A stretch of DNA of 64,000 nucleotides. Origin: Escherichia phage vB_vPM_PD112. The DNA lies in sequence record NC_054928.1; one strand, given 5' to 3'. The notes below the pieces were generated by a model. That model was not told the origin of the DNA and did no database searches. It saw only the letters and a program-made list of their open reading frames with translations. This document shows, in pieces, positions 2,738 through 47,289 of the stretch (its first letter is position 1; the number at the start of each line of letters is the position of its first letter). Position numbers and translations under genes: made by a program.

Positions 2738-4717
2738 ATGACTTTATTATCTCCGGGCATTGAGCTCAAAGAAACTACGGTTCAAAGCACCGTGGTTAAT
2801 AACTCTACTGGTACAGCAGCTTTGGCCGGTAAATTCCAGTGGGGTCCTGCTTTTCAGATCAAACAGGTTACAAATGAAGTAGATTTAGTTAATACTTTTG
2901 GTCAACCTACAGCTGAAACTGCTGACTATTTTATGTCTGCAATGAATTTCTTACAATATGGAAATGATTTGCGAGTTGTGCGTGCTGTCGATAGAGATAC
3001 CGCTAAAAACTCATCTCCGATTGCCGGTAATATTGAATACACAATTTCTACCCCAGGTAGTAACTACGCAGTTGGAGATAAAATCACGGTCAAATATGTT
3101 TCAGATGCTATTGAAACTGAAGGTAAAATTACTGAAGTAGACGTAGATGGAAAAATTAAGAAAATTAATATTCCTACTGCAAAAATTATCGCTAAAGCTA
3201 AAGAAGTCGGTGAATATCCGGAATTAGGTTCTAACTGGACTGCGGAAATTTCTTCATCTTCCTCTGGTTTAGCTGCAGTAATAACTCTTGGAAAAATTAT
3301 TACTGATTCTGGTATTTTATTAGCTGAAATTGAAAATGCTGAAGCTGCTATGACAGAGGTTGGCTTTCAAGCAAATCTCGAAAAATACGGAATTCCAGGA
3401 GTAGTAGCGCTTTATCCAGGCGAATTAGGCGATAAAATTGAAATTGAAATAGTATCTAAAGCTGACTATGCAAAAGGTGCTTCTGCATTACTCCCAATTT
3501 ATCCAGGCGGTGGTACTCGTGCATCTACTGCTAAAACTGTGTTTGGATATGGACCACAAACTGATTCACAGTACGCTATTATAGTTCGTCGTAATGATGC
3601 TATTGTTCAAAGCGTTGTTCTTTCAACAAAGCGCGGTGAAAAAGATATTTACGATAGTAACATCTATATCGATGACTTTTTCGCAAAAGGTGGTTCAGAA
3701 TATATTTTTGCAACTGCACAAAACTGGCCAGAAGGCTTCTCTGGAATTTTAACTCTGTCTGGTGGATTATCATCAAATGCTGAAGTAACAGCAGGAGATT
3801 TAATGGAAGCCTGGGACTTCTTTGCTGACCGTGAATCTGTTGACGTTCAGTTGTTTATTGCGGGTTCTTGTGCCGGTGAATCTTTAGAAACAGCATCTAC
3901 TGTCCAAAAACACGTCGTTTCAATCGGGGATGCTCGCCAGGATTGCTTAGTATTGTGCTCACCACCGCGCGAAACTGTAGTTGGAATTCCTGTAACTCGC
4001 GCTGTTGATAACTTAGTCAATTGGAGAACCGCAACAGGTTCATACACTGATAATAACTTTAATATCAGTTCAACCTATGCAGCAATTGATGGTAACTACA
4101 AATATCAGTATGACAAATATAATGATGTCAATCGCTGGGTTCCATTAGCAGCTGATATTGCTGGTTTATGCGCAAGAACTGATAACGTATCTCAGACTTG
4201 GATGTCTCCAGCTGGTTATAATCGTGGTCAGATTCTTAACGTTATTAAACTTGCTATTGAAACTCGCCAGGCTCAGCGCGACCGTTTATACCAAGAAGCT
4301 ATCAACCCGGTAACTGGTACAGGTGGTGATGGTTACGTATTGTATGGTGATAAAACAGCTACTTCTGTTCCTTCTCCATTTGATCGTATTAACGTTCGTC
4401 GTCTGTTTAATATGTTGAAAACGAATATCGGACGTAGTTCAAAATATCGTTTGTTCGAATTAAACAACGCGTTTACTCGTTCATCATTCCGCACAGAAAC
4501 TGCCCAGTACTTACAGGGAATTAAAGCTCTCGGTGGAATTTATGAATATCGTGTAGTTTGCGATACAACAAATAACACTCCGTCAGTAATTGATAGAAAT
4601 GAGTTTGTTGCAACATTCTACATCCAACCGGCGCGCAGTATAAATTATATCCAACTTAATTTCGTCGCAACTGCTACTGGTGCAGATTTCGATGAGTTAA
4701 CTGGTCTTGCAGGTTAA
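2738..4717 (+). CDS. 18: Tail sheath protein gp18
   Basis: 659-aa ORF, MTLLSPGIELKETTVQSTVVNNSTG..., matches T4 gp18 in length and sequence. Confidence 0.93.
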   Translation: MTLLSPGIELKETTVQSTVVNNSTGTAALAGKFQWGPAFQIKQVTNEVDLVNTFGQPTAETADYFMSAMNFLQYGNDLRVVRAVDRDTAKNSSPIAGNIEYTISTPGSNYAVGDKITVKYVSDAIETEGKITEVDVDGKIKKINIPTAKIIAKAKEVGEYPELGSNWTAEISSSSSGLAAVITLGKIITDSGILLAEIENAEAAMTEVGFQANLEKYGIPGVVALYPGELGDKIEIEIVSKADYAKGASALLPIYPGGGTRASTAKTVFGYGPQTDSQYAIIVRRNDAIVQSVVLSTKRGEKDIYDSNIYIDDFFAKGGSEYIFATAQNWPEGFSGILTLSGGLSSNAEVTAGDLMEAWDFFADRESVDVQLFIAGSCAGESLETASTVQKHVVSIGDARQDCLVLCSPPRETVVGIPVTRAVDNLVNWRTATGSYTDNNFNISSTYAAIDGNYKYQYDKYNDVNRWVPLAADIAGLCARTDNVSQTWMSPAGYNRGQILNVIKLAIETRQAQRDRLYQEAINPVTGTGGDGYVLYGDKTATSVPSPFDRINVRRLFNMLKTNIGRSSKYRLFELNNAFTRSSFRTETAQYLQGIKALGGIYEYRVVCDTTNNTPSVIDRNEFVATFYIQPARSINYIQLNFVATATGADFDELTGLAG

Positions 4718-4729
4718 TTGATTGATTGT

Positions 4730-4743
4730 GGGGCTTCGGCCCC
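4730..4743 (+). terminator. Stem-loop GGGGC-UUCG-GCCCC downstream of gene 18
   Basis: Perfect 5-bp GC stem with UUCG tetraloop; no strong U-tract. Confidence 0.5.
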
Positions 4744-4760
4744 TATTCTCGAGGAAACAA

Positions 4761-5366
4761 GTGATTATTTCTAAGTTTGTTACAATAAAACCAAGAAATC
4801 ATTCAAAAATGTGGTCGACAATTCTAGGATATAAAGTATCATATCATGATACAGTATCTGTTCCAATAGAATTAATGCCAAAGAATAGTAATAAAATAGT
4901 TGACGCTAAATGTGATTTGTGCGGTATTAAATTTAGTAGAAGCATTCAGCTTTTAAATAGAACACCTACACATGCATGTAGAAAATGTAGCATTAAACAA
5001 GTTGCTATTAAAAATTCGGAAGTTCAATCCGGAATAAGCAGACCATGGCAAAGAGGCGATAAACACCCTCGATGGACTGGTAAAAGAAAAGAGTTTGCAT
5101 TATATGCTAGTAGAGTTCATTCTATAACTAAGTCAGCTAAAATAAGAAAAATTTGGTCAAAATGGCCGAATGCTGATAAAATAGGAGTGTGCGGTGTAGA
5201 AGGTGCTTACCAACTCGATCATAAAGTATCTATCAAATATGGATTTGATAATTTAATTCCGCCGGAAATTATAGCAAGCGTAAAAAATTTAGAAATAATC
5301 ACTTGGGAATCTAACCGAGAAAAGTCAAAAAGAAATAGCGTAGATCTTTGGGATTTACTAGAATGA
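4761..5366 (+). CDS. HNH-family homing endonuclease-like protein (free-standing, between genes 18 and 19)
   Basis: CDLCG...CRKC zinc-finger pairs and HNH core AYQLDHKVSIKYGFDN...NLEIITWESNREKS; start uncertain (GTG 4761 with GAGGAA SD, or ATG 4809). Confidence 0.65.
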   Translation: MIISKFVTIKPRNHSKMWSTILGYKVSYHDTVSVPIELMPKNSNKIVDAKCDLCGIKFSRSIQLLNRTPTHACRKCSIKQVAIKNSEVQSGISRPWQRGDKHPRWTGKRKEFALYASRVHSITKSAKIRKIWSKWPNADKIGVCGVEGAYQLDHKVSIKYGFDNLIPPEIIASVKNLEIITWESNREKSKRNSVDLWDLLE

Positions 5367-5373
5367 TTCTAAA

Positions 5374-5391
5374 GGCCTGTTTCGGCAGGCC
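5374..5391 (+). terminator. Stem-loop GGCCUG-(6 nt)-CAGGCC downstream of the HNH ORF
   Basis: Inverted repeat seen directly. Confidence 0.4.
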
Positions 5392-5392
5392 A

Positions 5393-5400
5393 TATAAATA
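5393..5400 (+). promoter_or_regulatory. Late promoter box TATAAATA (distal copy upstream of gene 19)
   Basis: Exact TATAAATA. Confidence 0.5.
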
Positions 5401-5451
5401 CACTATATCCTTAATTCTTTAATTCTATATGCCCTAGGTTAAACATAGGGA

Positions 5452-5459
5452 TATAAATA
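5452..5459 (+). promoter_or_regulatory. Late promoter box TATAAATA (proximal to gene 19)
   Basis: Exact TATAAATA 15 nt before the gene 19 ATG. Confidence 0.6.
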
Positions 5460-5473
5460 CTACAGAGGCTAAT

Positions 5474-5965
5474 ATGTTTGTAGATGATGTAACACGAGCG
5501 TTTGAATCTGGTGATTTTGCTCGACCTAACTTATTCCAAGTAGAAATTTCTTATCTTGGACAAAATTTTACGTTTCAATGTAAAGCCACTGCTTTACCAG
5601 CTGGTATTGTAGAAAAAATTCCAGTCGGATTTATGAACCGTAAAATTAACGTAGCAGGCGATCGTACATTCGATGACTGGACTATTACAGTAATGAATGA
5701 TGAGGCGCATGATGCACGCCAGAAGTTTGTTGACTGGCAAAGCATTGCTGCTGGTCAAGGAAACGAAATTACTGGTGGAAAACCTGCAGAGTATAAAAAG
5801 AGCGCTATTGTTCGTCAATATGCTCGTGATGCTAAAACAGTAACAAAAGAAATTGAAATTAAAGGTCTGTGGCCTACTAACGTGGGTGAACTTCAATTAG
5901 ATTGGGATTCAAACAATGAAATCCAAACCTTTGAAGTAACTCTTGCTCTCGATTATTGGGAATAA
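5474..5965 (+). CDS. 19: Tail tube protein gp19
   Basis: 163 aa, MFVDDVTRAFESGDFARPNLFQVEISYLG..., matches T4 gp19. Confidence 0.93.
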   Translation: MFVDDVTRAFESGDFARPNLFQVEISYLGQNFTFQCKATALPAGIVEKIPVGFMNRKINVAGDRTFDDWTITVMNDEAHDARQKFVDWQSIAAGQGNEITGGKPAEYKKSAIVRQYARDAKTVTKEIEIKGLWPTNVGELQLDWDSNNEIQTFEVTLALDYWE

Positions 5966-41811: not shown

Positions 41812-42314
41812 TTAAAAGTATTTTTTAAAACTCATCATAACTTTATCATCAACATCATTATCAATCTGTGCAACAAGGTAAGATGACAGTTCTACTTCTT
41901 GTGGCGCGGATTGAACATTATCAGAATTAAGATATTCACGAATCCAAGGATATGGGTGTTTAACCGGAGCATCGGTAATTGGGCATGGAAGACCACACTG
42001 TTTCATACGAGATACAGTTAAGTAATCAATAAAGCTCCACATGCTATTTGTATTTAATCCAGGAACATCGCCATCTTTAAATAAATGAACTGCCCAGTCT
42101 TTTTCTTGGCGGTTAACTTCCATGAAAATATCAACTGCTTCTTGTTCACACTCTTGAGCAATTTTAACCCATTCATCACCATCAGTGCCAAGTTGAAGTT
42201 GACGAATAATATATTGGGTGCCTTTAAGGTGAAGCTGCTCATCACGTGCAATGAACTTCATAATCTTGGCATTACCTTCCATGATTTCCATGTTCTTATG
42301 GAAGTTAAAGGTAC
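41812..42314 (-). CDS. nrdB: Ribonucleotide reductase beta subunit NrdB, exon 2
   Basis: Frame continues upstream of the called Met as (C)TFNFHKNMEIMEGNAKIM..., matching the R2 core [21 protein letters not shown]. Confidence 0.85.
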
Positions 42315-42618
42315 CGTTATGTTCGATTGAGCTCGCTAATTCTCAACCCGTTCTCTTATGAACTGCTACATATTACTATGCAGACCAGACTATATCACAA
42401 TCCCAGAGGGATTCTCCCCATTTCGAGTCGCTTGACCCTACGTCCGAAGACTAGTCGTTGAACCTTGCTTTGCAATTGTGCATCCTCTTAAAAGTATAAT
42501 CATTTATATTATACTAATTAAAGGTGCAAGCAAAACCTTGGCTGCTAGTTTTCCTATAAAGGACTTTCCAGCAATTAAAGGAGTTTTCGATAAACGTTAC
42601 CGTTTAAAGGCGCATTTT
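42315..42618 (-). ncRNA. Group I self-splicing intron in nrdB (304 nt, no endonuclease ORF)
   Basis: Exon 1 ends ...UCUUUUGCGU; intron ends ...ACAUAACG; joining restores SFA-C-TFNFH in frame; P7-like GACUA/UAGUC pairing in the core. Confidence 0.8.
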
Positions 42619-43294
42619 ACGCAAAAGATACATAAAAACGAATAGCTTCTAAGGCATTAATAACGTGCAAACAGAGGTAAAGAGATTTCATTAAAGCACG
42701 TTTAGCTTCGGCTTCTTGTTTAATAGCTCGGTTTAAACGAAAATCAGCATCAGGAGATTCTTTAGCTAGTTCTACAAATTCTTTAGCATTTTCCCATTCA
42801 CGGGTTTTAATAAGAACATCATCATAATAACGCCCAATGGATTCAGCACGTTTCATAATAGCTTCATCTAATACAATCTCATCAAATACCTTCGATGGAT
42901 CAGTATAAAGATTTCGCATGATATGTGTATATGAACGGCTGTGAATAGTTTCACTAAAAGTCCACGTAGCAACCCATGTATCAAGGCTTGGGTCTGAAAT
43001 TAATGACATAAGTACAGCAGACGGCGCACGACCCTGAATGCTATCCAAAAGTGATTGATACTTCAGATTATTAGTAAAAATATTTTGCTGATACTGAGGA
43101 AGCTTATTAAACTGTGCAGCATCCATCATTAAGTTTACTTCTTCAGGACGCCAGAAAAATGATAAGGACTTCTCTGTAAGTTCTTCAAATACCTTATGTC
43201 GTTGAATATCATAACGTGCAATTCCAAGACCTGAACCGAAGAACATAGGTTCTGTTAAAACATCAACTGGATTTGTATTAAAAACTGTGCTCAT
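42619..43294 (-). CDS. nrdB: Ribonucleotide reductase beta subunit NrdB, exon 1
   Basis: 225 aa, MSTVFNTNPVDVLTEPMFFGSGLGIARYDIQRHKVFEEL... ending ...IRFYVSFA. Confidence 0.88.
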
Positions 43295-43345
43295 AAATTT
43301 TCCACTTAGTTAATAGTTGGTGACTCGTCCATGAGTCAAATTATA

Positions 43346-46479: not shown

Positions 46480-46741
46480 CATTATGTTCAGATAAGGTCG
46501 TTAATCTTATCCCGGAATTATATCCAGCTGCATGTCACCATGCAGAGCAGACTATATCTCCAACTTGCTAAAGCAAGTTGTCTATCGTTTCGAGTCACTT
46601 GACCCTACTCCCTAAAGGGATAGTCGTTAGGCATTTATGTAGAACCAAAGTCCTACAATTTAGCACGGGATTGTCTACTAGAGAGGTTCCCCGTTTAGAT
46701 AGATTACAAGTATAAGTCACCTTATACTCAGGCCTAAATTA
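46480..46741 (-). ncRNA. Group I self-splicing intron in td (262 nt, I-TevI ORF absent)
   Basis: 5' splice site UUGGGU|UAAUUUAGGCCUGAGUAUAAGGUGACUUAUACUUG...; 3' end ...CUUAUCUGAACAUAAUG|CUUCCAUUU; matches the T4 td intron core minus the ORF loop. Confidence 0.88.
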
Positions 46742-47289
46742 ACCCAAGAAAACATCTACAGAACGTTGATACCACTGCAAATCCAAATAGCCATTACGCA
46801 CATTAAACTGATAGAACATGTGACAAGGCGGTAATGCCATTTGCTTAAGTTCAGCTGGATTCCATGCAGAAACAATTTGACGCCTATCATTCGGCAGTTT
46901 TTTAATACGATCAATAACTTCTATAATTTGGTCTACACCGCCAAAATCACGCCATTGTTTTCCATAAATTGGACCAAGTTCACCGCTATGATATCCTAAA
47001 TCTTTTGCTTGATTTTCGTAATTTTCATCCCAGACTGTTTTGCCTTGAATTAATGAATTATGTTGAATTAATCGCAAATCATTTACGTTAGTACTTCCTG
47101 ATAAGAACCACAATAACTCAGAAATACATGCATTCCAGGCGAGCTTCTTAGTCGTTACTGCAGGAAAACCTTTAGTTAAATCCCAACGTAATTTAGTACC
47201 GAACAAAGCAATTGTTCCTGTGCCTGTTCGGTCATCGGTTTCATAACCGTTTTCCAGGATATCTTTAATTAAAAATTGGTATTGTTTCA

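Follow-up and report, generated by a model that had tools for sequence, protein, structure and literature searches.

The nrdB intron of phage T4 is self-splicing and guanosine-dependent, and several degenerate endonuclease genes in T-even introns were reportedly described by Sandegren & Sjoberg in 2004 (J Biol Chem). The corresponding intron of phage RB3 (NC_025419) is 1091 nt long and carries an active 269-aa H-N-H endonuclease, I-TevIII. The RB3 intron with its full-length I-TevIII goes back to Eddy & Gold 1991, as cited in PMC1865063 and PMC2790892, and it homes by means of the intact enzyme (PMC2790892, PMC1865063). The T4 intron, at 598 nt, arose naturally from the RB3-type intron by deletion (PMC2988022). 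The deletion falls within the ORF, of which a defective remnant of 97 codons is left; mobE adjoins the gene, and MobE mobilises the defunct T4 intron in trans (PMC2790892). The life cycle of a homing endonuclease is described as invasion, fixation, endonuclease degeneration, and loss (PMC2988022).

The DNA analysed here, called the window below, is a 64,000-nt stretch of Escherichia phage vB_vPM_PD112 (NC_054928.1), in which nrdB lies on the minus strand. Without splicing, exon 1 is read as an ORF of 225 codons (43294..42617, starting MSTVFN) that runs into a stop, and a second ORF lies downstream, reaching to 41812. The 304 nt in between occupy the same gene and insertion site, with the same splice junctions, as the RB3 intron, and share with the T4 intron the site and the ribozyme (about 97% identity). 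The RB3 intron encodes its own endonuclease, whereas the window intron has none and no mobility of its own; T4 keeps an ORF remnant and mobE, whereas here the whole ORF and mobE are gone. With a probability of about 0.9, this is an allele of the self-splicing T-even nrdB intron (group I, IA2-type) from which the I-TevIII gene has been lost. The parts of the split gene are as follows:

42619..43294, minus strand: nrdB exon 1, 225 codons and the first base of a Cys codon, with the 3' end ...UUUGCGU; it matches E. coli R2 residues 3-213
42315..42618, minus strand: nrdB intron, group I (IA2-type), 304 nt, with no homing-endonuclease ORF (Rfam RF00028 at 68.6 bits, T4/RB3 alignments, covariation)
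42315, minus strand: terminal guanosine (omega-G) at the 3' splice site, in the same position in RB3 and T4
41812..42314, minus strand: nrdB exon 2, in which GU completes the Cys codon, with 166 further codons and a stop

Exon 1 ends at 42619 with ATT CGT TTT TAT GTA TCT TTT GCG T. The intron starts from 42618 with AAAAUGCGCC and ends at 42315 with GAACAUAACG, and exon 2 opens from 42314 with GT ACC TTT AAC TTC CAT AAG AAC ATG GAA. Removal of 42618..42315 joins ...UUUGCGU to GUACCUUU, forming UGU (Cys) and an open frame of 392 codons. The junction is unique, in that a shift of one base either way alters the mRNA or its product. The spliced 392-aa NrdB matches E. coli R2 over its whole length among the PDB sequences (E about 1e-124), with no gap at the junction. 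The original prediction had placed the frame break and both splice points (after the U of UUUGCGU and after the terminal G) exactly, 304 nt apart and with the minus strand implicit, and it was right that an in-frame Cys codon (TGT) is restored there. It had also described the T4 intron as roughly twice as long and carrying the I-TevIII frame, which agrees with the 598 nt and the defective remnant noted above.

The 304-nt element belongs among the T-even nrdB group I introns and shows every defining feature that could be tested. A check against the Rfam group I covariance model, proposed beforehand, gave a match to RF00028 of 68.6 bits (E = 2.7e-15; 42635..42366, minus strand, full model 1-253), above the gathering score of 50. 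Folded by MFE and unconstrained, the intron has a free energy of -80.3 kcal/mol (z = -2.35) and forms P2, P3, P4/P5, P5a, P6, a long P6a/P6b arm, P7.1, P7.2, P8, P9, P9.1, and P9.2. The GACUA/UAGUC pairing that the original prediction called P7-like is present, at 42456..42452 and 42392..42388, and forms P7. The subgroup is IA2 (the type of T4 td, nrdB, and nrdD): the P7.1/P7.2 insertion between P7 and P3', which is typical of subgroup IA, and the P9.1/P9.2 extension are both present. The structural elements are listed below in 5' to 3' order of the RNA:

42610..42622, minus strand: P1 hairpin, exon GCGU and intron A1 with U5-C9 (UGCGC), written GCGU/A-AAA-UGCGC with a slash at the splice site; from a local fold and identical in T4 and RB3
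42591..42606, minus strand: P2 hairpin UAAACG-GUAA-CGUUUA, with compensatory changes in 3/6 pairs
42578..42583, minus strand: P3 5' strand CUCCUU, pairing with 42419..42414 in the MFE fold; invariant
42543..42573, minus strand: P4/P5 stem and P5a hairpin, the P5a closing pair being U-A, A-U, or G-C among the alleles
42462..42542, minus strand: P6 arm, from the MFE fold, 100% paired in 11 alleles
42542-40 with 42464-62, minus strand: P6, from the MFE fold
42536-30 with 42473-67 (intron 83-89 with 146-152), minus strand: P6a, 100% paired in 11 alleles
42528-20 with 42488-79 (intron 91-99 with 131-140), minus strand: P6b, 100% paired in 11 alleles
42515..42493, minus strand: P6 apical hairpin, from the MFE fold
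42452..42456, minus strand: P7 5' strand GACUA, 5/5 pairs with 42392..42388, invariant; in a pseudoknot with P3; the guanosine-binding helix
42425..42451, minus strand: P7.1 (GUC-UUCG-GAC) and P7.2 (GGGUC-AAGC-GACUC), 100% paired, with one compensatory P7.2 pair in DCP80
42414..42419, minus strand: P3 3' strand GGGGAG, from the MFE fold and the pair model
42399..42413, minus strand: P8 hairpin, from Rfam, the MFE fold, and the pair model
42388..42392, minus strand: P7 3' strand UAGUC, 5/5 pairs with GACUA, invariant
42366..42383, minus strand: P9 hairpin CUGCAUA-GUAA-UAUGUAG, with an A-U/G-C compensatory change relative to T4
42325..42363, minus strand: P9.1 and P9.2 hairpins, 100% paired, with two compensatory P9.2 pairs in DCP80

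At the 5' splice site, U(-1) at 42619 pairs with G6 at 42613 in the local fold, giving the wobble within P1, which is short (5 bp including the wobble), as it is in T4 and RB3. A P10 pairing of the 3' exon with the P1 loop was sought, and no convincing one was seen in the window, T4, or RB3. An alternative register for P6a (86-94 with 145-154) was rejected because it gives C-A mismatches in three alleles with A151, whereas the MFE register and P6b are 100% paired.

Covariation adds to the case for this structure. Eleven alleles were aligned, with the ORF segment cut from those that bear one, against an explicit structure of 86 pairs that includes P7, and 99.6% of the cells are standard pairs. 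Nine pairs have changed on both sides, namely three in P2, two in P9.2, and one each in P5a, the P6 apical hairpin, P7.2, and P9. None of 500 shuffles attains these values, and controls in which the 3' partners are slid by 1-3 columns have 36-44% paired and 0 double changes. P3 (6/6) and P7 (5/5) are standard pairs in all 11 alleles; they are invariant, and covariation is hence neutral on them. Many of the compensatory changes come from two alleles that are themselves ORF-less, those of phages CJY920 and DCP80, and the structure of these alleles has therefore been kept under constraint.

The history of the window intron can be read by alignment to its relatives, another of the checks proposed beforehand. 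It equals the RB3 intron minus 785 bp and minus a further 2 nt (one AT in the P6 apical loop), with 0 substitutions; over the last 165 nt the identity to RB3 is 100%. T4 has the same exon flanks and the same first 82 intron nt, but the alignment to the 598-nt T4 intron falls into two pieces, with 294 bp absent from the window. The nearest parent is thus an RB3-type intron with full-length I-TevIII rather than the T4 form, given the zero substitutions relative to RB3 and the several differences from T4. The deleted 785 bp lie between two copies of ACAATTG, at RB3 intron positions 142 and 927. The first copy holds the annotated TTG start codon of I-TevIII, and the second sits in Asp-Asn-Cys codons, nine codons ahead of its stop. 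Slippage and microhomology recombination are both expected to leave a deletion of this kind, between short direct repeats, and the 785-bp loss would fit either. The alignments locate the ORF deletion and bear out the suggestion of an endonuclease-free version of the T4/RB3 intron, with no intact endonuclease ORF overlooked. Four features remain around the junction:

42501..42508, minus strand: relic late-promoter-like box TATAAATG in the apical hairpin, TATAAATA in T4 and RB3, changed by the 2-nt loss
42483..42489, minus strand: relic I-TevIII Shine-Dalgarno sequence AAGAGGA, sequestered in P6b
42473..42479, minus strand: deletion junction with a single ACAATTG kept; TTG at 42475..42473 is the former I-TevIII start codon
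42395..42475, minus strand: 26-codon fusion ORF MQSKVQRLVFGRRVKRLEMGRIPLGL with a TTG start, crossing P6a', P7, P7.1, P7.2, P3', and P8

In the best-supported model of the RNA, the 3' strands of P6b and P6a are separated by a 5-nt bulge, and the retained ACAAUUG consists of this bulge and the pair that flanks it on either side. Since P6a and P6b are fully paired around it in all 11 alleles, the ORF was looped out of a peripheral arm. The deletion took only this peripheral loop and left helices P1-P9.2 untouched. What is left of the endonuclease is the TTG start and the last nine I-TevIII codons, out of frame; since 785 is not divisible by three, the ORF now opened by the TTG is an out-of-frame one. 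The resulting 26-codon frame is presumed to be a meaningless accident. It does exceed the limit of about 20 codons in the original prediction, being the longest sense ORF, while the substance of that claim stands: a Pfam scan of this ORF and of the antisense mechanical ORFs (55, 44, and 36 codons) gave no family above threshold. The relic Shine-Dalgarno sequence, the TTG, and a frame running through the catalytic core mean that ribosomes could in principle interfere with folding.

This mode of loss can be set beside other shortened introns. The nrdB intron of Salmonella phage SG1 (420 nt, locus 1501-1920) is another natural shortened allele, in which the deletion is inside the I-TevIII ORF, the endpoints are different, and both ACAATTG copies are kept, which makes it an independent decay event. 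In ORF-less group I introns generally, the ribozyme outlives the endonuclease gene at a conserved functional site, and the window intron does likewise; rather than gradual point-mutational decay, however, it displays a single clean repeat-to-repeat deletion with 0 substitutions relative to the parent. Full-text searches of the literature found no completely ORF-free nrdB intron described, though one may have been reported before.

Endonuclease loss in this phage extends beyond nrdB. The td gene carries a companion element:

46480..46741, minus strand: td group I intron, ORF-less, 262 nt (Rfam match 46751..46528, 73.8 bits)

By blastn, it corresponds to T4 td intron positions 1-94 and 849-1017, with I-TevI deleted. 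One-piece matches to it occur only in CE1, 215Ecol030PP, BYEP01, and CJY920, while many other phages in the collection have td introns shortened to about 320 or 445 nt. The spacer from the nrdA stop (43346) to the nrdB start (43294) is only 51 nt (43295-43345) and lacks mobE; the same spot holds mobE and nrdB.1 in T4, and mobE in RB3. Over the td-nrdA-nrdB stretch, T4 therefore has three endonuclease genes and the window phage none, with both ribozymes kept. The window nrdB intron is left without a drive of its own because both mobE and I-TevIII are absent.

The phage collection that was searched comprises 50,697 records, about 700 of which match an nrdB query and about 125 of which carry the intron. 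Most of these 125 have the full-length RB3-type ORF, and T4-type remnants, 587-598 nt long, number about thirty. Only five are contiguous across the ORF-less junction: CE1 (304 nt), BYEP01 (304), SP21535 (300), CJY920 (309), and DCP80 (309), all with GGATGC-ACAATTG-CAAA(G/A)C. The window region is 100% identical to vB_EcoM_CE1 (ON229909, Tequatrovirus) and 99.8% identical to BYEP01. The introns of CE1, BYEP01, and SP21535 have an RB3-like background; that of CJY920 has an HY03/SG1-like 5' half (97.4% to the ORF-bearing HY03) and an RB3-identical 3' half. The most diverged is DCP80 (genus Gaprivervirus), with about 88% identity over a 506-nt query of intron plus flanks; among full-length relatives, CJY920 and DCP80 are nearest to one another, at 93.5%. 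The five carriers span at least two or three intron backgrounds, and their common junction could reflect either recurrent deletion at the same repeats or one deletion followed by recombination. Exact-pattern scans of IMG/VR and of metagenome contigs returned zero copies of the junction or of a conserved core 29-mer; these nulls are uninformative on prevalence because the collections appear to be without any copy of the nrdB intron.

The allele is also present in differing nrdB genes. In BYEP01, 61 of the 225 exon-1 codons differ from the window (42820-43220), all of them 200-600 nt upstream of a near-identical intron, which is the usual T-even recombination mosaic. When T4 was crossed with T2, the recombination induced by MobE mapped to this 5' region of nrdB (PMC2790892). 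In DCP80 (PQ671644), there are Ns in nrdB exon 1 (upstream of locus position 1400) and an oppositely oriented 'DNA primase' CDS just upstream, which suggests an assembly gap or join; its exon 1 was left out of the codon counts owing to the Ns.

The window allele probably undergoes normal guanosine-initiated two-step splicing, since its first 82 nt and flanks are those of T4, its 3' half is that of RB3, and both relatives have annotated spliced nrdB CDSs. The ribozyme in the nrdB pre-mRNA would fold and bind free guanosine at P7, and the guanosine would attack the phosphate after U(-1), at the U-G wobble of P1. The freed 3'-OH of exon 1 would then attack after the terminal G (42315), and ligation of the exons would create the TGT Cys codon and with it a functional 392-aa R2 protein. 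Having neither its own endonuclease nor a neighbouring mobE, such an intron could not self-home. It would persist inasmuch as nothing short of exact excision gives back a working nrdB and the I-TevIII target is interrupted wherever the intron is present, and it may still move passively by recombination of its flanks.

One could consider instead that the element is a dead relic, with a ribozyme inactivated by the deletion or by later changes, nrdB reduced to a split pseudogene, and the host ribonucleotide reductase used in its place. The nrd genes of T4, nrdB included, are dispensable under laboratory conditions, so a viable isolated phage is no proof of splicing, and the GenBank annotation does present two separate CDSs. 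This is nevertheless improbable, as the core helices are without substitution relative to RB3, the deletion affects only a looped-out segment, and the diverged ORF-less alleles of CJY920 and DCP80 keep their pairing by compensatory changes. The coding sequence argues in the same direction. In the four ORF-less carriers open to evaluation, both exons are intact and synonymous changes far outnumber nonsynonymous ones. BYEP01, CJY920, and SP21535 keep the full spliced frame of 392 aa, with synonymous to nonsynonymous counts relative to the window of 46:15, 37:11, and 29:10 in exon 1. Exon 2 is open and its changes are mostly synonymous in all carriers (6:1, 12:1, and 9:2 in the same order, and 59:31 in the diverged DCP80).

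Another possibility is that the ORF-less intron predates the invasion by I-TevIII, the double ACAATTG of RB3 and T4 being a by-product of insertion. Direct repeats around an insert arise by insertion or deletion alike, and free-standing endonucleases invading ORF-less introns are a route discussed as collaborative homing (PMC2988022). Upstream of the junction, however, there persist a Shine-Dalgarno sequence with the helix that sequesters it, a TTG start, and a late-promoter-like box. That these signals remain, the box damaged, with nothing to express argues for a derived rather than an ancestral ORF-less state. The promoter label on TATAAATA in T4 and RB3 is putative and comes from its match to the T4 late-promoter consensus. 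The box is damaged or deleted in three of the five ORF-less alleles: the 2-nt loss affects it in CE1 and BYEP01 and it is gone in SP21535, while CJY920 and DCP80 keep it. Zero substitutions relative to RB3 imply a very recent split, and the ORF-less allele is rare (5/~125 intron-bearing records), so that an ancestral state is even more improbable than a dead ribozyme. Least credible of all is an assembly artefact, in which the intron is short because the region was collapsed or put together wrongly. The quality of certain carrier records is modest (CJY920 is marked 'UNVERIFIED' and DCP80 has Ns), but a 7-bp repeat is too short to collapse an assembly, five records agree on the junction although their isolates and hosts differ, and SG1 has its own, different short form. 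An RB3-type intron that lost its I-TevIII gene by deletion remains the preferred reading.

Any intron-bearing allele, whether or not it has an ORF, has a disrupted target, and this may plausibly help to explain why such an intron is retained; the rarity of exact intron excision is a further reason (PMC2988022). A more far-reaching and rather doubtful proposal is that the ACAATTG pair acts as a built-in excision hotspot, giving recurrent precise loss of I-TevIII on the RB3-like, HY03/SG1-like, and Gaprivervirus (DCP80) backgrounds. The nuclease-free nrdB and td introns might then be selected as "immunity alleles" that split the I-TevIII and I-TevI targets without the cost of a nuclease. The phage provides material for testing inertia against protection from the endonucleases of co-infecting phages as the cause of persistence.

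The ORF-less nrdB allele is a minor new variant, a rare natural form, in a known T-even intron family. It leaves the current understanding of group I introns unchanged and represents a late but ordinary phase of selfish-element decay. Its value lies in offering a clean natural case of the late homing-endonuclease life cycle in the classic T-even model, with the nuclease gene gone in one step, precise to the nucleotide, and the ribozyme intact, and in one phage that shows this loss in both td and nrdB, with mobE absent too. The natural minimal nrdB ribozyme of 304 nt is also useful for splicing studies. In addition, the locus exposes an annotation problem, since the public records of all five carriers have no intron annotated. 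In CE1 (ON229909, locus positions 4427-5909), for example, nrdB and td are each given as two CDSs, one per exon, and nrdB exon 2 bears the name 'major capsid protein'.

Related sequences are also found outside nrdB. The DCP80 intron, used as a query, has partial matches of 80-90% in phage records from Pectobacterium (38), Klebsiella (17), Pseudomonas (4), and Aeromonas (2); these are presumably relatives among the group I introns of other genes. In Pseudoalteromonas phage pYD6-A (NC_020849, marine N4-like, Schitoviridae), an 'ATPase' gene is annotated as split, and Rfam at the gathering threshold gave no match on its intervening sequence (locus about 1505-1590). The 3' module of this sequence is ~88% identical to the nrdB intron through J8/7, the P7 3' strand, and P9-P9.2 to the terminal G, which suggests that intron modules may have been exchanged between unrelated phage families.
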